A stretch of 52,725 bases of DNA from an uncultured Pseudomonadales bacterium (lineage in GTDB: Bacteria > Patescibacteriota > Microgenomatia > UBA1400 > PJMF01), in contig CAZOWX010000010.1 of the NCBI GenBank assembly GCA_964583795.1, positions 1 through 52,725 of the forward strand, written 5' to 3'. The translations under genes and the position numbers were made by a program. This document shows positions 2,469-38,461 of the stretch, one piece after another. Under the pieces are notes generated by a model. The model saw nothing but the letters and a program-made list of their open reading frames with translations, was not told the DNA's origin and did no database searches. Numbering within the stretch: position 1 is the stretch's first letter; every line of letters begins with the position of its first letter.

Positions 2469-3683
2469 TTATTCTTGTCTTTCTTTGAGTGTTACCTTGG
2501 TGGCCTTCTTTTCTCCATCGCGATAATACTCGAGCTCAATACTATCCCCGACCTTTTTGTTATTAATGAGCTTTGCCAGGTCAGTATCATCTTTCAGCTC
2601 TGTTCCATCAAACTTGGTAATGATGTCATCTGCTGTAATGCCGGCTTCACTTGCTGAAGTGCCTGGCACTACATCGACAACATACGCACCTTGTGGCAGG
2701 TTGTTCATCAGGGCGGTTTTCTTGGAAATCATCTGATACTGAACGCCGAAAAATGGACGCTCGAACTTCCCAGTGCGGTTGAAGTTGTCTAAGCTTTCTT
2801 TGATAATATTAATTGGAATGGCAAAACCAATGTTTTGCGCATTTCCGGCTACTGCTGAGTTGACGCCAATCACTTTCCCTTCTGAATTAAGCAGAGGGCC
2901 ACCAGAATTTCCCGGGTTAATTGCAGCATCAGTTTGAATTACGTTATCAAGTCGCTCCGAGCTAAAGCCACTTCCATCACTCGCGGTAATGCCTCTACCC
3001 AAACCTGATATGACTCCAGTAGTCACCGTGTGGCGAAACTCACCCAAGGCAGTTCCAATGGCAATCACTGATTGTCCGACTTTTAGCTGATCAGAATCGC
3101 CCAACTCAACAGCTGGCAGCTCGCCTTCAATCAATATAATGCCAATATCATTTGCTGGATCACGATACATTTTTTTGACGATAAATTGATTACCGTCTTT
3201 GTCTTCGACAAAGTACTCTGCTTGTGTATCAGAAATAACGTGTTTGTTCGTAATAATCAGACCAGCTTTTGAATCGACGACAAAACCGGTACCAATATCT
3301 TGAGGTTCGTTATCATTTTGATTGAGTCCTTGGTTCGGAGTGTCAAACGGTGAAAAGCCAAAGAAACCAAATGGAGACAAACGAGAGAACGGTTGATTTT
3401 TGCGCTTGATTGAAATAGTGACGACAGATTTCGAAGCTGTTTCTGAAATACTGACAATACTATTCTCTTGATTGTTGAGACGTGGTGTCTCTGGGGTTGA
3501 AGACTGCTGCTTTGAAGTGAAAGTTCGCTGAATCAAACCATCAAGTGGTTTAATCACAAATAATCGATCCGCAACTGCTCCTCCAAGAGCTGACGCGATG
3601 ACTAAAACGCTAACTGATAAACCCAATAGAAAGGGTTTTATTGGTGAGTGTGTGTGTTTGGGAAGTGATGATTGATCTTGCAT
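2469..3683 (-). CDS. htrA: HtrA/DegP-family serine protease with C-terminal PDZ domain and N-terminal TM anchor
   Basis: GTGFVVD..GLIITNKHVI, D.GIILIE and GNSGGPLLNSEGKVIGVNSAV form the catalytic triad context. A PDZ-like C-terminus follows. Confidence 0.9.
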   Translation of the reverse strand: MQDQSSLPKHTHSPIKPFLLGLSVSVLVIASALGGAVADRLFVIKPLDGLIQRTFTSKQQSSTPETPRLNNQENSIVSISETASKSVVTISIKRKNQPFSRLSPFGFFGFSPFDTPNQGLNQNDNEPQDIGTGFVVDSKAGLIITNKHVISDTQAEYFVEDKDGNQFIVKKMYRDPANDIGIILIEGELPAVELGDSDQLKVGQSVIAIGTALGEFRHTVTTGVISGLGRGITASDGSGFSSERLDNVIQTDAAINPGNSGGPLLNSEGKVIGVNSAVAGNAQNIGFAIPINIIKESLDNFNRTGKFERPFFGVQYQMISKKTALMNNLPQGAYVVDVVPGTSASEAGITADDIITKFDGTELKDDTDLAKLINNKKVGDSIELEYYRDGEKKATKVTLKERQE

Positions 3684-6168: not shown

Positions 6169-6203
6169 GGAAATGGATCCCGGCCTTCGCCGGGATGACG
6201 ATC
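6169..6203 (+). repeat. GC-rich palindromic hairpin repeat (GGATCCCGGC..GCCGGGATGACG type)
   Basis: ggaaatggatcccggccttcgccgggatgacgatc. Near-identical copies lie at 16006-16034 (inverted) and 16137-16165. Confidence 0.85.
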
Positions 6204-10220: not shown

Positions 10221-11048
10221 CTAGCGTGCAGCTTTTCCAGCTTTGTAGGCCTCTGCAATAGTGTGGACGATCAACTTGATACTGCGAGCAGCATCGTCAT
10301 TGGCTGGGACAACGATATCCACGTTTGAAGGATCATCGTTACTGTCCACCATTGCAATCACTGGAATTTTAGCTTGATTGGCCTCTAAAATAGCAGTTTT
10401 CTCTCGTCCGATGTCAACGACAAATAAAGCGTCAGGAGTAGTTTTTAAATCAGCTACACCACCGAAAAAGCGCTCAAGGCGAGCCACCTCTTTTTCGATT
10501 AATAACTTCTCCATTTTGGTGTAGTGTTTGTACTTACCTTCCTTGAGATCATTTTTCATTTGAGTCATTGAACGCACCGATTTCGAAACTTGTTCCCAAT
10601 TGGTCACAAAACCACCAAGCCAACGGTTAACGATGTACATAGCGCCTGCTTGAACTGCTTCTTCGCGTACAATGTCCTTTGCTTGGCGTTTTGTACCGAC
10701 AAATACGATGTTTTTTCCTGCTTTGGCAAGTTCGTACACTTTTAGAGCAGCTAGGCGAAGCTGTTTTTCGGTGATGATCAAATCAAAGATATGCACGCCA
10801 TCTTTTTTTGCATAAATGTACGGAGCCATTTTGGGGTGCCAACGCTTTGCTTGGTGGCCAAAATGACATCCAGCTTCGAGGAGTTGGTGAACGTCATATT
10901 CAGGGGAAAATGTCGTAGAAGCAACTGCTCCAGCTTTTTTTGTTGCTGGTGCTGTTTTAGTAATTTGCGCCTCCTCTTTTGGAGTCGCTTTGGTATCAGT
11001 GGCAACTGTATCTGCCATAAAAACCGCCTTTCGCCGCTCATCCGTCAT
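10221..11048 (-). CDS. rpsB: 30S ribosomal protein S2 with an ~40-aa Lys/Thr/Ala-rich N-terminal extension
   Basis: LLEAGCHFGHQ..RW.PKM..YI, FVGTKRQA, and NRWLGG..TN. The start is uncertain, either 11048 or 11018. Confidence 0.95.
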   Translation of the reverse strand: MTDERRKAVFMADTVATDTKATPKEEAQITKTAPATKKAGAVASTTFSPEYDVHQLLEAGCHFGHQAKRWHPKMAPYIYAKKDGVHIFDLIITEKQLRLAALKVYELAKAGKNIVFVGTKRQAKDIVREEAVQAGAMYIVNRWLGGFVTNWEQVSKSVRSMTQMKNDLKEGKYKHYTKMEKLLIEKEVARLERFFGGVADLKTTPDALFVVDIGREKTAILEANQAKIPVIAMVDSNDDPSNVDIVVPANDDAARSIKLIVHTIAEAYKAGKAAR

Positions 11049-11063
11049 CCCGCTAAGCGGGAC
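11043..11063 (+). repeat. small member of the CGTCATCC-hairpin family
   Basis: cgtcatcccgc taa gcgggac. The ATG of the longest rpsB ORF is the reverse complement of its GTCAT. Confidence 0.5.
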
Positions 11064-11093
11064 AAGGTGGTTGTAACCGGATGATGTGTATTT

Positions 11094-11128
11094 AGTTAAT
11101 AGTAAACAGTTAACAGTGAATAGTTAAC
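11094..11128. repeat. 7-nt-phased tract (5 units)
   Basis: agttaat agtaaac agttaac agtgaat agttaac, lying between the rpsB start and the folD stop. Confidence 0.8.
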
Positions 11129-15211: not shown

Positions 15212-15820
15212 TTAATCATGTCGACTCCAAAGATTCAGGTAAAACGCCGATTGATCTTGCGGAAAGCCAATTTGATTGAGTTGTTCCTGAATAGTCGCCA
15301 GATTGTCACTATCTTTACTCCACATGTCAGCCAGTTCAAACACCGTTTCACGAACTTCATTGGGGAAAATAATCCAAGCGTTGACTTCCTTAACAAAAAA
15401 ATCGGGACGAATAGTTGAGTGGGGTTTATGAAAAAAAACGGCGGTTTTTAGCGAAGCGATGCCCCGATGGTGTAAGTACTGCATGGCTGTTTGCATGGTT
15501 TTGCCAGAATCAACCAGATCATCAAAGAGTAACACTTTTTCACTTTTGAGCGACACTGGAATACTTTGAGTAATGACTGGCATAGCGCCAGGTGTGTTAA
15601 TGTTGTTGTAAAACTCGATGTGCAGAGAACTTACATCTTCAATGTTGAGATAATCAACGAGTGATCGCGAAAAAGTAAGTCCGCCTTTAGCGAGAGCAAT
15701 GACTCGGTCAAACTTCTCTCCACTTTCAACAATTTGTCGAGCCAAGGTGTAGATATCCTGTCCTTGCTCAGCCCAAGTTTGAAATTGATAGGAGATATTT
15801 TTAATAGTAACTGAGTTCAT
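15212..15820 (-). CDS. purine-type phosphoribosyltransferase family protein
   Basis: PRPP-binding motif VLLFDDLVDSGKTM. 202 aa. Confidence 0.8.
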   Translation of the reverse strand: MNSVTIKNISYQFQTWAEQGQDIYTLARQIVESGEKFDRVIALAKGGLTFSRSLVDYLNIEDVSSLHIEFYNNINTPGAMPVITQSIPVSLKSEKVLLFDDLVDSGKTMQTAMQYLHHRGIASLKTAVFFHKPHSTIRPDFFVKEVNAWIIFPNEVRETVFELADMWSKDSDNLATIQEQLNQIGFPQDQSAFYLNLWSRHD

Positions 15821-16005
15821 ATGGTTGGTTCGTCCTCTATTTTTTCGATTGTTTCTTCAAGGATTAAATCGCGAAGTAGAAGCAGTGTATCATTCCAGTC
15901 AACTTTGTCATAGGTACTTTTTCTTTATTGATTACAAGATTTAGAGTACTTATTGATTTCTGACTAAATTATACAAGGCTTTTACACTTGTTAATCAAGA
16001 ATAGC

Positions 16006-16165
16006 TCGTCATCCCGGCGGAAGCCGGGATCCATCATTACAGTCTGGATGCATATTTATATTGTTAGACGTCAAGGTTTTAACTCATTACTTTAATCAGT
16101 TTAAATTGTTTTGATTATTGTACATAAATTTGGGAAATGGATCCCGGCTTCCGCCGGGATGACGA
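16006..16165. repeat. pair of 29-bp hairpin repeats in inverted orientation flanking 102 bp (MITE-like)
   Basis: tcgtcatcccggcggaagccgggatccat (16006-16034) is the exact reverse complement of atggatcccggcttccgccgggatgacga (16137-16165). Each arm is itself a hairpin (ATCCCGGC/GCCGGGAT). Confidence 0.85.
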
Positions 16166-16268
16166 TCGTTATTTTTACTAAAAAGTTTGCAGATACCAAT
16201 ATTGCTTATGCTACTAAAAATCTGTTGAGTAGCACGATTATTTTAATTTCTGTCACTTATTCGTGATC

Positions 16269-17972
16269 TTATTTTTTTGTATTCTCAGTCGCTTTCAAAA
16301 ACTCAATAAACATCGCGTGAGGCTTCAGTGGCCGTGATTTGTATTCTGGATGAGCTTGAGTAGCGACAAAGAATGGGTGAATCTTTTTGGGTAACTCAAT
16401 CATCTCCACGAAAAAATCATCGGGCGACGTGCCGCTAATCACAAATCCTTTTTCTTCAAGGGCATTGCGATACTCATTATTAAACTCAAATCGATGGCGA
16501 TGACGCTCAGAGATGAGATGTTTCTTGGCATCTTTATATTGATGATGTTGCTGATACATTTGATCGATTAAAGTCCCTTTTTTGAGCACGCAGTCGTAGG
16601 CCCCTAAGCGCATACTTGCTCCATCCCCTTTAATTCTTTGATAGTGCGGATCAAAGGGAATGGCGTGAATGATAGGATCGGGAGTGTTCGGATCGACTTC
16701 TTGGGTGTGAGCTTGTTTGAGTCCAACTACGTTTCGTGCAAACTCAACTGCAGCAAGTTGCAATCCGTAACATAAACCCAAATACGGCACTTTGTGTTCA
16801 CGAGCATATTGGATGGCAGTAATTTTTCCTTCTACTCCTCTGCTTCCCCACCCGATTGGACAGATGATGCCATCAACTGATCGTAAATCTTTTTTGGCTT
16901 GGGCGTCGTTTTGTTCCAATTTTTCTGCATTGATAAACACCACTTCCAGTGCGACTTCATTTGCCCAGCTGGCATGATTCAACGCTTCGATGAGTGAGTG
17001 ATACGAATCAACCAGTTCATAATCACCGGTGGAAATATACTTTGCAATGATTCCGATACGCGTGGCATGTTTTTTGTCAGAGTGAATCTTGTCGATCAAT
17101 TTTCGCCAAGGTTTAAACTCACCATTGAGTTGCTTATATTTCAAAAATAATTTTTCTAACACTAACTCATCAAATCTTTGTTGTTGAAAGATCAGTGGCA
17201 ACTCGTAAATTGAGTCCATATCAGGATTAGAGATGACATGTTCTTTATTTAAGTTACAGTAAAAGGCTACTTTTTCCTTACGCTTGTCGTCAATCATGGT
17301 TTGGGCGCGACCAACAATGAAGTCGGGTTGAATCCCCATTGAGTTGAGCATTTTGACAGAGAGTTGGGTGGGTTTGGATTTGAGTTCGTGAATGTGTTCT
17401 GGAGAGGGAAAGTAAGTGACGTGAATATGAATCACATCTTTTGGTTGGCGCAGCTTCATCATACGATAGGTTTCGTAGTAGATAGCGTTTTGGTACTCTC
17501 CGGCAGTCCCGCCAAGCTCAACCAAAATAATATCAAAGCCTTCAGCTGCAAGTTGAATACGTCGAATGACCTCTTCTGGTACATAAGGAATGGCATCAAC
17601 TGTCGCGCCATTAAAAGTAAGATTTTTTGTGTCTTCAATCACTTTTAGGTATACCTGACCCATGGTGGTAAAGTTGCGATTTCCCACGTTTTCATCCAAG
17701 AAGCGCTCATAGGAACCTAAATCAAGATCAGCCTCGAGACCATCTTCGCACAGAAACACGTCACCATGCTCAATGGGATTAATGTTACCCGAATCAAGGT
17801 TAAGATAGTTTTCGCACTTAATATTAGTAACAGAGTACCCTTGGGCTTTAAGGAGGACCCCAAGAGATGCGGCGGTAATCCCCTTGCCAAGTCCACTCAG
17901 GACTCCGCCGGAGATGAAAATGTACTTGGGGGAATTGGTTGATGCTGTGGGTTTTTTTCCATGAATGCTCAT
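16269..17972 (-). CDS. pyrG: CTP synthase
   Basis: ISGGV.SGLGKGI and the glutaminase site GLCYGLQ...EFAR, plus H.HRFEFN. Confidence 0.97.
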   Translation of the reverse strand: MSIHGKKPTASTNSPKYIFISGGVLSGLGKGITAASLGVLLKAQGYSVTNIKCENYLNLDSGNINPIEHGDVFLCEDGLEADLDLGSYERFLDENVGNRNFTTMGQVYLKVIEDTKNLTFNGATVDAIPYVPEEVIRRIQLAAEGFDIILVELGGTAGEYQNAIYYETYRMMKLRQPKDVIHIHVTYFPSPEHIHELKSKPTQLSVKMLNSMGIQPDFIVGRAQTMIDDKRKEKVAFYCNLNKEHVISNPDMDSIYELPLIFQQQRFDELVLEKLFLKYKQLNGEFKPWRKLIDKIHSDKKHATRIGIIAKYISTGDYELVDSYHSLIEALNHASWANEVALEVVFINAEKLEQNDAQAKKDLRSVDGIICPIGWGSRGVEGKITAIQYAREHKVPYLGLCYGLQLAAVEFARNVVGLKQAHTQEVDPNTPDPIIHAIPFDPHYQRIKGDGASMRLGAYDCVLKKGTLIDQMYQQHHQYKDAKKHLISERHRHRFEFNNEYRNALEEKGFVISGTSPDDFFVEMIELPKKIHPFFVATQAHPEYKSRPLKPHAMFIEFLKATENTKK

Positions 17973-18027
17973 GGAGATACATTGTAGGTGAGATGGGATA
18001 GAGTGGCAAGTAGCTGTTTAGGGATCA

Positions 18028-18062
18028 GTATTAGGTATGAAGTGTAAAGTATTGAGAATGTG
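18028..18062. repeat. 7-nt-phased tract (5 units) upstream of pyrG
   Basis: gtattag gtatgaa gtgtaaa gtattga gaatgtg. Confidence 0.7.
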
Positions 18063-18093
18063 TTCGTTAAAAAATAGGTTCTTTTGAAGAAAG

Positions 18094-18711
18094 TTATCGT
18101 TTTTTCTTAAGTGGACGTACCGCTTCAGAAGGATCAATTGGGGGACCATCTTGCCCAACTTCGGTTTGGTCCGATAAAGCTGCAATTCTTGGCGCTCTTT
18201 CATCATTTTTTCTTTTTCTATGTAATACATGAACGTGTACTGCCTGATGTAATTTTGTCAGTACAACAGCACTATCGTAAGCTGGTGTGTCTGGATGGAT
18301 CTCTGAAATGTCAATTCCATATTGATACGATAACCGCCGTAATAATTCTCGCCCTTTTGTGGAATTTGCGTCTATTTTGAGTTCTTTAACAAAAATTGAA
18401 ATAATAATCTCGGCAGCTGTAGTCACTACTAGAGCTCCTCCAAGGAAAGGTTCAACACTATTAGTCAATACAAGTGAAGCAACAGCTATCAATTCAACAA
18501 CACTAGCCGTAGTGATTCCTGTCAACCAAGGAATCTGCTTAAGTCGATCTATGTGTTTGTTAAGTTCAGCGCGAAAAGTTTGCCAGTCTTTGCGGTCCCA
18601 GTCCACTCGTGCCTCAATGTCGCTAAGCCAAGCAGCCATGACTTCTTCATCATGGGTTGCTGGATCTACTTCACCAAAAGTGTATCTAACCATAACTTCA
18701 TTATATCGCAC
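18094..18711 (-). CDS. hypothetical membrane protein (two central TM helices, basic C-terminus)
   Basis: 205-aa ORF. No family recognised. The start may be the downstream M at residue 7. Confidence 0.5.
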   Translation of the reverse strand: MRYNEVMVRYTFGEVDPATHDEEVMAAWLSDIEARVDWDRKDWQTFRAELNKHIDRLKQIPWLTGITTASVVELIAVASLVLTNSVEPFLGGALVVTTAAEIIISIFVKELKIDANSTKGRELLRRLSYQYGIDISEIHPDTPAYDSAVVLTKLHQAVHVHVLHRKRKNDERAPRIAALSDQTEVGQDGPPIDPSEAVRPLKKKR

Positions 18712-18788
18712 ACATGCTGATTATTCAAGAATTGTATTGGTTAAAAACATTGATACATGTGTTAGAAACTGAATAAAGGGGTAAAATA

Positions 18789-22304: not shown

Positions 22305-22358
22305 TGGCTGTAGTGTAATGAGAACTGGTAATAGTTGCAAGTTTCAAGATTTTTGGTT

Positions 22359-22393
22359 GCTACAAGCTTCAAGCTACAGGCTACAAGTGACAC
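22359..22393. repeat. 7-nt-phased tract, CTACAAG type (5 units)
   Basis: gctacaa gcttcaa gctacag gctacaa gtgacac. Confidence 0.8.
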
Positions 22394-22500: not shown

Positions 22501-22526
22501 CGTCATCCTGAACTCGTTTCAGGATC
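22501..22526 (+). repeat. CGTCATCC-hairpin repeat, TGAA-stem variant
   Basis: cgtcatcctgaa ctcg tttcaggatc. The stem is ATCCTGAA/TTCAGGAT. Confidence 0.8.
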
Positions 22527-22709: not shown

Positions 22710-24209
22710 CTAATTTGTTAATTGTTTTTCTAAAGTTGTCTTTACACTTTGTGGATCGACTTTCTTACCGAGCTTTCTCATCACCTGACCCATCAAAAAG
22801 CCAATGATTTGCGTTTTTCCAGCTTGATAGTCAGTGACGGCTTTTGGCTGTTCTTTAATAATAGAAGCAATAATTGTTTCAAGTTCACTCGTATCGACTG
22901 TATCAACGTGGGTAAATTCTTCAAATGTTTTGAGTAACTTGTCTGGACTCTCTAGCAACTGCGTTGCAAGTTTTTTGTTGACTAATAAATTAGCAAGTTT
23001 ATTGACATCTTGTTTGTTTTGCACAAAAAGTTGAGCGATAGCTTCGAACTGTTGCGTTTGAGTTGGAGTTACCGTGAGTACTTGCGCATAGCGTTTTTCA
23101 ACTTGATACTCTTTTCCCCATCGTTCAACGATCTGATCGGGAAGCTCTGGGAGTTGACTCTTGAGTTCATCAATTTGTTTTTGAGTGAACAGTATTGGAG
23201 GTAAATCAGGGTCAGGGAAGTAACGATAGTCTTCAGCATCTTCCTTTGACCGCTGGGAGAAAGTTTCGCTTTTTTTTTCATTCCAACCACGAGTTTCCTG
23301 CGTTGGTACTTCTCCTTTTGCAAGGATTTTTGATTGACGATCAATTTCAAATGCAACTGCCTTTTCTAGAAACCCAAACGAGTTGATATTCTTTACCTCA
23401 ACTTTATACTTGGGTAAATCTTCTTCAGTGAGACGCTTGTTGCTTGTGGCTTGTAGCTTGAAGCTATCCAAGAGCGAGATATTTGCCTCCAAGCGCAGGC
23501 TTCCCTGTTCCATGTTGCAATCAGAGATGTCCAGGAATCGCAAAATTTGACGCAGTTTTTTACCATACGCTTTTGCATGTGCTGCACTGTGGATGTCCGG
23601 TTCAGTTACAATTTCTACTAGTGGGACGCCTCCTCTATTGAAGTCAACGAGACTCACTTTTTGTTCTACAATTTTTTCAGTAGGTCCTGAATATTCATGT
23701 CTCAAATTTTTTGTATTTTCTTGTGGAGTTCGACTTGACTTTTCAGGATGACGGTTTGCAGAATTAACCGAGATAGTTTGATGAATCAATTTTCCAGTAT
23801 CTTCTTCCAAGTGAATACGGCGAATACGCACCGGCCCTTCTTCTGTCTCCAGAATGCCATGTTCACAAAACGGAATATCGTACTGACTAATCTGATAGCC
23901 TTTTGGCAAATCAGGGTAGAAGTAGTTTTTTCGATCAAACTTGGAAAACAAGTTGATTGTACAGTTGAGCGCCAGTCCTAACTTAATGGTCCACTCAATA
24001 GCCTTTTTATTGGCAACTGGCAGCGCTCCAGGCATGCCAAGACACACTGGGCATGTGTAGACATTCGGTTTCGGAGCGTGGAAGGGATCATTTTTACAAC
24101 CACAAAACATTTTGGAATTAGTCTTTAGTTCGGCATGAACTTCCATACCGATTATTGGGGTATAGATAATGGATGATGGATGATGGATGGATGACTTTTT
24201 ATTTTTCAT
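22710..24209 (-). CDS. gatB: Asp/Glu-tRNA amidotransferase subunit B
   Basis: IIGMEVHAEL.T.SKMFCGC, FDRKNYFYPDLPKGYQISQ, HLEEDTGK, VDFNRGGVPLVEIVTEPD, DYRYFPDPDLPP. Its start forms an ATGA overlap with the stop of the upstream four-helix-bundle gene. Confidence 0.95.
   Translation of the reverse strand: MKNKKSSIHHPSSIIYTPIIGMEVHAELKTNSKMFCGCKNDPFHAPKPNVYTCPVCLGMPGALPVANKKAIEWTIKLGLALNCTINLFSKFDRKNYFYPDLPKGYQISQYDIPFCEHGILETEEGPVRIRRIHLEEDTGKLIHQTISVNSANRHPEKSSRTPQENTKNLRHEYSGPTEKIVEQKVSLVDFNRGGVPLVEIVTEPDIHSAAHAKAYGKKLRQILRFLDISDCNMEQGSLRLEANISLLDSFKLQATSNKRLTEEDLPKYKVEVKNINSFGFLEKAVAFEIDRQSKILAKGEVPTQETRGWNEKKSETFSQRSKEDAEDYRYFPDPDLPPILFTQKQIDELKSQLPELPDQIVERWGKEYQVEKRYAQVLTVTPTQTQQFEAIAQLFVQNKQDVNKLANLLVNKKLATQLLESPDKLLKTFEEFTHVDTVDTSELETIIASIIKEQPKAVTDYQAGKTQIIGFLMGQVMRKLGKKVDPQSVKTTLEKQLTN
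23683..23754 (-). mobile_element. 72-bp palindromic-repeat copy inserted in frame within gatB
   Basis: The termini ggtcctgaa...ttcaggatgacgg match the repeat at 34805-34855 (gatcctgaa...ttcaggatgacgac). The segment encodes RHPEKSSRTPQENTKNLRHEYSGP, 24 codons. Confidence 0.6.
24161..24195. repeat. left arm of cassette 1 (7-nt-phased tract containing a 19-bp perfect IR arm at 24162-24180)
   Basis: tatagat aatggat gatggat gatggat ggatgac. It lies within gatB codons 5-16. Confidence 0.9.
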
Positions 24210-34681: not shown

Positions 34682-34804
34682 AGCTATTTCTTTTGCTTAC
34701 TTTACCTGTCTGTACGCCACTCCTAAGAACGCAACAACTCAACAACATTACCTACTGAAGGCTTTACTACTATTGGATTGAGCAAAGCAAGTGGTCTGAC
34801 TTTA

Positions 34805-34855
34805 GATCCTGAATCCGTCTTGCTCGTTCCTCGCTAGACTGTTCAGGATGACGAC
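34805..34855 (+). repeat. CGTCATCC-hairpin repeat, TGAA-stem long-loop variant
   Basis: gatcctgaa-(28 nt)-ttcaggatgacgac. Confidence 0.8.
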
Positions 34856-34926
34856 TTTTTACTTTTCTTGTTTTTAAAATGTATTGTTACCCCAGACACT
34901 AATTCCTAATCGCTCGTCACTAGTTG

Positions 34927-37670: not shown

Positions 37671-37732
37671 GTTGCTAGTATATAGGGTTTTGTATATGGT
37701 ATGTAGGGAGTTCGCTAGTACTTAATATAGTA

Positions 37733-37990
37733 CTAGAGCGACTCTGAAAATTTAATTATTGTATGTCTCTTCATGAATGCTCTGCCTGAACCAGACTTTA
37801 AATATTTTTCGAATCCAAACGCAACAAACTTGTTTGCAAAAGCGAAGTAACAAAGAAGATTAACTGGCAATCTTTGTTTTGTGGAATTAACTTGTCCACT
37901 CTGATGTCTTATGATTCGCTCTTTTAAGTTGTCAGTACATCTAATATAGCTTTTTTTATCTGAACAGAGAAGAATATAAACAAAATACAT
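37733..37990 (-). CDS. GIY-YIG nuclease family protein (UPF0213-like)
   Basis: MYFVYILLCSDKKSYIRCTDNL..R...H. 85 aa. Confidence 0.85.
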   Translation of the reverse strand: MYFVYILLCSDKKSYIRCTDNLKERIIRHQSGQVNSTKQRLPVNLLCYFAFANKFVAFGFEKYLKSGSGRAFMKRHTIIKFSESL

Positions 37991-38139
37991 TGCGGGACAT
38001 TATAAACTAATGAAGAAAAGTTTGCCCTAGTTTTTTACTGATATACGGTTGTTAAAATTTGAGACTCGTTGTTGAGGATAAGCGGACAGTGTCTCGCCAA
38101 AGCCTTTAGCAGGTAACGTATAGTTGAAGTAATTGCTCT

Positions 38140-38183
38140 ATTAAAAGGAGCCCGCCTCCACTGAAGCTACGGCGAGGCGAAGG
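38140..38183 (-). terminator. hairpin plus UUUU downstream of tRNA-Asp
   Basis: The minus-strand RNA is UUCGCCUC-(15 nt)-GAGGCGGG followed by CUCCUUUUAA. Confidence 0.4.
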
Positions 38184-38256
38184 CGGACTCGGCCGGATTC
38201 GAACCGGTGATCTCCTCTGTGACAGAGAGGCGTGATAACCACTACACTACGAGTCC
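38184..38256 (-). tRNA. tRNA-Asp (anticodon GUC), CCA not encoded
   Basis: The reverse complement is GGACTCGTAGTGTAGTGGTTATCACGCCTCTCTGTCACAGAGGAGATCACCGGTTCGAATCCGGCCGAGTCCG. Anticodon loop is CTGTCAC and T-loop TTCGAAT. Confidence 0.88.
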
Positions 38257-38461
38257 AGATGTTAAATTTCGAGCCTTAATTATATCGAAATTTTGGCACT
38301 TGAGTACCACTAAAACTTCTAAAGTAGTGATATCCCCCATGCGCTCAAGATTGCTTTGTCGCTGGGCTTATTCAGTCATACTCCTCATCTTGAGCTCTGG
38401 GGGATTATAAATTGCAAATTTACAACTATGGAGTATATAATCGCGAAAAAGGTGGGATATT

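Follow-up and report, generated by a model that had tools for sequence, protein, structure and literature searches.

The window, by which we mean the whole 52.7-kb stretch of DNA that was analyzed, carries a dispersed family of short hairpins. We consider it likely, with a probability of roughly three in four, that these are CGTC-tagged REPs of the CGTC-1 type, the class of dRS3/NTS, RPE-6, and the "Ssn-related motifs," and that the segment 16006-16165 is a head-to-head (HH) homodimer of two 29-nt units. The window has 42% G+C and holds housekeeping genes; the closest named relatives of its pyrG and phosphoribosyltransferase (PRTase) proteins come from a "Patescibacteria group bacterium" and from Pacebacteria MAGs, while look-ups for proteins identical to three of the window's own gave no match. 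Patescibacteria are a new host for a described class, and the repeats are not a new kind of element; since the class and its protein partner are already published, the finding opens no new field.

Seven hairpins in the window carry a CGTC tag

The octamer CGTCATCC occurs 10 times on both strands of the window, with respect to 1.15 expected and a maximum of 4 in 100 shuffles; a chance origin of the family was rejected. Seven of the 10 matches run directly into a perfect palindrome; the other three (36650, 43619, and 46290) lie inside ORFs, have no hairpin, and are at chance level. A scan of the window for CGTC followed by a perfect stem returned exactly the same seven copies, and with loops of 3 to 8 nt it gave 6 matches compared to 1.5 in shuffles. 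More generally, a palindrome scan yielded 48 matches compared to about 31 in shuffles, the surplus being the CGTC copies, and it revealed no second recurring hairpin family in the window. All seven copies that a previous reading of this DNA, made from the sequence alone, had listed were found where that reading placed them:

6173-6200 (hairpin 6177-6200), minus strand: single CGTC-1 REP with loop GAAG, between convergent genes, a 288-aa ORF and tgt
11043-11062, plus strand: rpsB-leader look-alike, CGTCA-TCCCGC-TAA-GCGGGA-C
16006-16034 (hairpin 16007-16030), plus strand: left arm of the pair, CGTC-1 type REP, TCGTC-ATCCCGGC-GGAA-GCCGGGAT-CCAT
16137-16165 (hairpin 16141-16164), minus strand: right arm of the pair, exact reverse complement of the left arm
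22501-22525, plus strand: TGAA-stem REP, CGTC-ATCCTGAA-CTCGT-TTCAGGAT-C, 5-nt loop, between gatB and dnaE
23685-23753, minus strand: TGAA-stem copy with a 51-nt interior, in frame within gatB, in a 34-codon insert
34806-34853, minus strand: TGAA-stem copy with a 28-nt interior, part of a unit of about 60 to 70 nt (34795-34866)

In every copy, CGTC immediately precedes the stem, whose interior is CCGGC/GCCGG (n = 3), TGAA/TTCA (n = 3), or CGC/GCG (n = 1) and is always paired; the bases constant across the copies are the GTC preceding the stem and the C following it. A fixed outer signature around variable but paired stems, as first described, thus holds in all seven copies. As for the further claim that the stems covary, and that selection therefore acts on the hairpin, the stems do stay paired; the apparent covariation is mostly a difference between subfamilies and does not amount to many independent compensatory events. 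The complete anatomy, an 8-bp stem starting with AT, a 4-nt loop, and a CCA-like tail, is found in 6177-6200, 16007-16030, and 16141-16164 (ATCCCGGC, 4 nt, GCCGGGAT, CCAT). The TGAA-stem copies keep the 8-bp AT stem, but their loops measure 5, 28, and 51 nt and their tail is CTA or CC. Excluding the hairpin of the rpsB leader, discussed below, six copies remain in 52.7 kb, with one HH dimer among them. They occur in both orientations relative to transcription, and each intergenic one follows the end of a gene, with neighboring genes that are convergent or run in the same direction. Near the copy at 22501, just upstream of dnaE (22345-22385, minus strand), an array of phased 7-nt repeats (cttgtag cctgtag cttgaag cttgtag) was also observed.

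The inverted pair is spanned by an independent contig and has a single-copy interior

Each arm of the pair (16006-16034 and 16137-16165) measures 29 nt (TCGTCATCCCGGCGGAAGCCGGGATCCAT); the arms are 100% complementary and separated by 102 nt, and the tags of both face outwards, so that the pair is an HH homodimer. The spacer (16035-16136) is a unique sequence of 26% G+C without an ORF, and stop-free stretches in the 160-bp element reach at most 35 codons. The layout first described, two exact reverse-complement copies of 29 bp around 102 bp of AT-rich, ORF-free DNA, is therefore accurate. The pair holds no terminator and no convincing promoter, no terminator-like site was detected in 15700-16400, and no target-site duplication was seen at the pair, its flanks being AATAGC and TCGTTA. 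A profile search for Ssn, the nuclease family considered below, found no remnant in the spacer, or elsewhere in the window besides the ORF P0001. As single-stranded DNA, the pair is predicted to form either a single stem of 29 bp that closes a loose 102-nt loop or two separate hairpins, with a predicted minimum free energy of -44 kcal/mol (z = -10).

Metagenomic runs containing this organism or close strains came from wastewater, freshwater, aquatic, and bioreactor samples (individual runs are labeled X1 to X7 where needed). A contig of the independent freshwater run X7 covers the entire pair (15925-16283, 3 differences), so the pair is not an assembly artefact, and X1 is identical to the window over the pair region. 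The spacer is single-copy both in the window and by metagenome contig depth, which is the same as for the flanks in runs X1, X3, and X4, with a value of 0 in X2. This speaks against the 160-bp unit being a MITE present in many copies. The "MITE-like layout" proposed from the sequence is not supported, given this result and the missing target-site duplication, and the arrangement fits instead the published "HH dimer" of CGTC REPs. The repeated unit of the right arm extends inwards by about 11 to 24 nt, to about 16113-16126 (tail CCATTTCCCAAA), and many other contigs match from 16113 or 16126 to 16165 or 16170; the tail CCATTTCC recurs in G+C-rich proteobacterial copies.

The repeats match CGTC-1 REPs and resemble Ssn-related motifs

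CGTC-1 REPs consist of an unpaired CGTC (or TGTC/CCTC) tag, an 8-bp stem starting with AT, a 4-nt loop, and a CCA tail (PMC3733652). The family, which includes the Neisseria dRS3 and the Rickettsia RPE-6 (Di Nocera, De Gregorio, and Rocco 2013, BMC Genomics 14:522; PMC3733652), mostly forms tags-out dimers, called HH, with spacers of 20 to 100 bp in most cases (PMC3733652). REPs are generally located after gene ends, between same-direction or convergent genes, and in-frame intragenic copies of CGTC REPs are on record (PMC3733652). The copies in the window share the CGTC tag, the 8-bp AT stem, the 4-nt loop, and the CCA tail. The pair is an HH dimer, comparable to published ones with spacers up to about 100 bp; copies lie after gene ends, one is in frame in a gene, and there are subfamilies with alternative complementary stems. 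Identification of a REP-type hairpin family from the sequence was therefore borne out by the agreement of this anatomy with published CGTC-1 REPs. Two differences were noted. The host is a member of the Patescibacteria (CPR) with 42% G+C, a phylum not among the five reported, and two of the TGAA-stem copies have long interiors (28 and 51 nt), the 28-nt form itself being high-copy.

In 2025, the CGTC class was renamed NTS/SRM and paired with the Ssn family cd10448 (Chenal et al., Nat Commun 16:2388; PMC11893778). Members of the Ssn family are GIY-YIG enzymes with a single domain and about 95 aa; to be bound and cut by them, the hairpin must be single-stranded DNA, and only one of the two strands is a substrate (PMC11893778). 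SsnA cuts upstream of the tag and does not act on RNA; in mutational analysis, cleavage depended most on the GTC that precedes the stem and binding most on the C that follows it (PMC11893778). The window copies follow the same CGTCAT-stem-loop-stem-ATC plan, and their invariant bases are those that SsnA needs. We searched the window with the published SRM pattern HGTCWYN(0-2)YYVSBRHN(0-5)WNVSBRGN(0-2)RNCYNB (PMC11893778). The copy at 6173-6200 fits exactly, with 0.1 matches expected by chance; both arms of the pair miss at one loop base (G where H is required), and the TGAA-stem copies do not fit. The ssn genes are often flanked on both sides by the motif (PMC11893778), in tags-out pairs like that of the window, but no ssn gene lies between or beside the window copies, unlike in NTS/SRM cassettes. 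Patescibacteria are not mentioned in PMC3733652 or PMC11893778, and our literature search found no published account of palindromic repeats, or of a GIY-YIG protein of this kind, in Patescibacteria.

Copies occupy sites that syntenic relatives lack

Over window positions of about 4000 to 33800, two relatives are collinear with the window, GCA_039934415.1 (here L334; pyrG 87% identical) and L335 (86%), so that orthologous spacers could be compared. The pair lies between two genes of the same strand:

15212-15820, minus strand: phosphoribosyltransferase (PRTase) gene
15821-16268: pyrG/PRTase spacer holding the pair, 448 bp, specific to this lineage
16269-17972, minus strand: pyrG

At this junction, the two genes overlap by 4 bp or are 1 bp apart in L334 and L335, and the distance is -4, 1, or 12 bp in five further relatives (L333, L387-L390), compared with 448 bp in the window. 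Outside the arms, the 448-bp spacer resembles neither the rest of the window nor the relatives. In another relative, L330 (PRTase 74% identical), an unrelated 168-aa ORF (2939-3445) is wedged at the same junction, with stop and start codons that overlap; it has no Pfam match, and no decayed homologue of it was found in the window. The pyrG/PRTase junction thus seems to be a recurrent insertion site. On the other side of pyrG, between dnaE and pyrG, a 205-aa ORF (18094-18711, minus strand) was observed that has no Pfam or NCBIfam match and is missing from all syntenic relatives, and in the close strains X2 and X3, 204 other bases replace 17994-18788; by these comparisons, the region 18094-18711 is a strain-specific insert.

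Three other copies show the same behavior. The spacer between tgt and its convergent neighbor is 316 bp with a REP in the window compared with 6 bp in L334, and the gatB-dnaE spacer is 369 bp with a REP compared with 207 and 45 bp without a REP in relatives. The 34-codon insert of gatB that carries the copy 23685-23753 is missing from gatB of both L334 and L335. Overall, only 2 octamer matches, one of them in the rpsB leader, were found in 79 kb of relatives, compared with 10 in the 52.7-kb window. Comparison of orthologous spacers, which the sequence-only reading had proposed as a check, shows the repeats to be inserted DNA, with copies lying in spacers, and in one case in a protein loop, that have no counterpart in syntenic relatives. 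That reading was only partly supported as a whole, and this part of it was right: judged from these comparisons, the repeats behave as inserted, mobile DNA.

Two sites vary between close strains and the repeats are abundant

Close strains from the metagenomes differ at two of these sites. A contig of 4913 nt from X2 is identical to the window over 15483-15914, has 15915-16289 exchanged for 539 other bases, and resumes in pyrG at 95% identity. Along 15483-17993, this contig has 0 differences from the window in 15483-15914 and 17800-17993 and 5% divergence in 16290-17200. Such mosaic identity suggests recombination tracts that end near the repeat-bearing spacer. In the strain of X3, 23663-23789 is replaced in frame by 25 nt, and gatB reads as the uninserted form of the relatives ("...QHTTVDSKKVSL..."). 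These contigs show that two sites, the gatB copy and the pyrG spacer, vary between closely related strains, about 93% to 96% identical as assessed by sequence comparison. All four strains examined carry both 6173-6200 and 34806-34853 (X2, X3, X4, and X7 for 6173-6200).

The repeats are not confined to the window. In four metagenomes, the summed contig depth over the CCGGC-type repeats is about 16 to 19 times that of the flanks and over the unit 34795-34866 about 25 to 50 times, a range of about 16 to 50 times that is rough because these depths sum all organisms in the sample. The unit 34795-34866 is the most abundant repeat of the lineage. We also observed tandem copies of it, spaced by 5 nt, on other contigs of X3 and X7.

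The copy at 11043-11062 belongs to a conserved rpsB leader

The longest rpsB ORF begins at an ATG (11048) inside GGATGACG, the reverse complement of the octamer, as the sequence-only reading had pointed out. Alignment with three relatives, however, places the real rpsB start at the ATG 11018, so this ATG does begin the longest ORF but is not the actual start codon. Alignment of the spacer between folD and rpsB from the window, L334, L335, and a further relative, L121, yielded a conserved leader (window 10990-11100, minus strand; L334:15592-15668; L335:16066-16144; L121:2645-2750). In this leader, TCATCCG pairs with CGGATGA and AACCACCTT with AAGGCGGTT; the segments follow the order a, b, a', b', which is pseudoknot-like, with a variable inner hairpin between them and a conserved ATG 25 nt downstream. 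The second helix, AACCACCTT/AAGGCGGTT, covers the AAGG just before the start codon. Since none of these leader pairs varies among the four sequences, the fold is unproven.

The octamer forms at the junction of the inner hairpin and the outer helix (GCGGGA-TGA-CGGATGAG). In L334, which otherwise has no REPs, it is found at the same position with the same flanks and with a compensated stem (TCCCGA/TCGGGA); L335 has the same position and flanks with a degenerate hairpin and no octamer, and L121 has a longer hairpin at this position. This alignment assigns 11043-11062 to a conserved rpsB 5' leader as its inner hairpin, and the copy is no recent REP insertion. The element is therefore old and probably functional in the mRNA. 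No Rfam match was found for the leader, and Rfam matches in the whole window were limited to tRNAs; the leader may be an S2 autoregulatory leader. This copy shows that a CGTCATCC hairpin can also be part of a conserved mRNA leader. The rpsB start codon is hereby corrected, and a conserved rpsB leader with a look-alike hairpin is flagged.

Related motifs flank Ssn nuclease genes in other genomes

The exact 26-mer CGTCATCCCGGCGNAGGCCGGGATCC was found at more than 120 loci in Alpha-, Beta-, and Gammaproteobacteria, a Microgenomates MAG, Actinomycetota, and others, and also in 31 viral contigs. Tags-out pairs of the form CGTCATCCCG...CGGGATGACG, about 420 bp apart, occur at 119 loci in other genomes, which span many phyla, many of the loci in G+C-rich genomes being chance matches. 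At 16 or more of these loci, the hairpins stand at both ends of a GIY-YIG ORF of 95 to 120 aa (VYIL..NGTLYIGVT..L..R..EH..G...GFTKKY). With a profile built from these cassette ORFs, 3 of 120 motif-centered loci gave a strong Ssn ORF that lies next to two copies of the motif or between them, and 80 rpsB-centered loci gave nothing but one weak match. In a metagenome scan, contigs matching a 32-mer that includes the tail were only G+C-rich ones, and no Ssn ORF was found on them. The CGTCATCCCG-type motif or tags-out pairs also match contigs of archaeal MAGs or isolates labeled Bathyarchaeota, Halobellus, and Nitrososphaerota (L023, L050, L265, and L269); some of these matches probably reflect binning errors or chance in G+C-rich DNA.

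The window encodes a single nuclease of the GIY-YIG superfamily:

37733-37990, minus strand: P0001, stand-alone GIY-YIG ORF of 85 aa (Pfam PF01541, E 4e-9)

P0001 matches the Ssn profile (E 3e-8) over positions 5-71 of 97 only, the conserved C-terminal part being missing. Its closest solved structure is 1ZG2, of UPF0213 (E 6e-5), and it is nearer to UPF0213/YhbQ than to the cassette Ssn proteins; NCBIfam has no name for P0001 or for the cassette proteins. As P0001 lacks the C-terminal region, has no CGTC hairpins alongside, and is nearest to UPF0213, we do not take it for the cognate Ssn nuclease. In this region (37700-38260, minus strand), we observed that the P0001 ORF lies directly downstream of a tRNA gene, that a G+C-rich imperfect hairpin follows the tRNA 3' end, and that a palindrome, CTAGTACT-TAATAT-AGTACTAG, overlaps the P0001 stop codon. 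The nuclease-like small ORFs of the window are only P0001 and a UPF0102 protein.

Alternative explanations

Since the layout of 16006-16165, an inverted doublet of short hairpin repeats, noncoding and dispersed, is that of a REPIN, and since the entire 160 nt can be predicted to fold as one long hairpin with a 29-bp stem, we considered a REPIN-type doublet moved by a RAYT transposase (IS200/IS605-like Y1), the partner that the sequence-only reading had in mind. RAYT transposases, however, pair with GTAG-tagged REPs, whereas the tag here is CGTC, for which Ssn is the sole experimentally shown partner (PMC3733652, PMC11893778). The published survey has no dedicated transposase for CGTC REPs (PMC3733652). 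The spacer is also long, unique, and unstructured, without self-complementarity, and neither Y1_Tnp nor any other transposase family was found in the window ORFs scanned. Because the CGTC class is bound and cut by Ssn nucleases, RAYT is the wrong partner, and we regard this explanation as highly improbable. A classical MITE, that is, an IS deleted down to 29-bp terminal inverted repeats and moved in trans by a DDE transposase, would account for perfect inverted ends around noncoding DNA. Such an origin is just as improbable, given that no target-site duplication is present, that the arms exist in many copies but the interior in only one, and that single arms occur on their own. No transposase or recombinase was identified by Pfam among nearly all larger ORFs of the window, a result that bears equally on a third proposal. 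In this one, an IS110/IS1111-type recombinase or a phage integrase would use the repeats as attachment or target sites, much as a Neisseria phage recombinase uses dRS3. The presence of the motif on viral contigs speaks for this proposal, but no inserted element splits any of the seven copies and no such recombinase gene was found in the window ORFs scanned; we judge it very unlikely, and at most a secondary use of the repeats.

A role at the RNA level, with the hairpins as terminators, processing sites, or stabilizers that would uncouple pyrG from the downstream operon, is the least improbable of these alternatives, although still unlikely. The position of all intergenic copies downstream of a gene end and the mRNA-leader location of the 11043 copy are both consistent with it. 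Against it, no copy is followed by a T-run or matches a terminator, the tails being CCAT or CTA, and intrinsic terminators were rejected on these grounds together with the lack of a terminator-like site around the pair. Orientation relative to transcription is not constant, one copy lies in frame within gatB, the same sequence is found in unrelated phyla and viruses, and SsnA is inactive on RNA (PMC11893778). An RNA role could nonetheless be a side effect of the repeats. Identification of the repeats as CGTC-1-type REPs inserted into this genome accounts for the tag, the anatomy, and the dimer, and we retain it.

A possible mechanism and its meaning

By analogy with the published Ssn systems, each unit would fold into a hairpin when its DNA becomes single-stranded, during replication, repair, or DNA uptake. 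A small GIY-YIG Ssn protein would then bind the hairpin, recognizing the stem, the GTC at its 5' edge, and the C at its 3' edge, and would nick that strand only, a few bases upstream of the tag. For a tags-out pair, this would be expected to place nicks just outside both ends, one per strand. We tentatively propose that the CGTC hairpins may be an active mobile system in this organism, driven in trans by an Ssn-type nuclease, with tags-out pairs as a gene-less, nonautonomous form carrying the DNA between the nick sites. This proposal is possible but doubtful. The published activities of Ssn are cleavage of such hairpins and modulation of transformation, and not the copying of hairpins (PMC11893778). 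If true, it would identify the long-missing mobilizing enzyme of CGTC REPs. It would also explain why operon junctions are split by several hundred bases in a streamlined genome, why strains differ in the presence of the gatB copy and the pyrG spacer, and why a core sequence is common to many phyla and viruses.

In conclusion, the window offers a case from a natural population in which the hairpins, in a tiny streamlined genome, part genes that overlap or nearly do so in relatives. One copy lies within an essential enzyme (gatB), and two or more sites vary between co-occurring strains. These polymorphic sites are material for studying how CGTC REPs are copied and whether Ssn does so.
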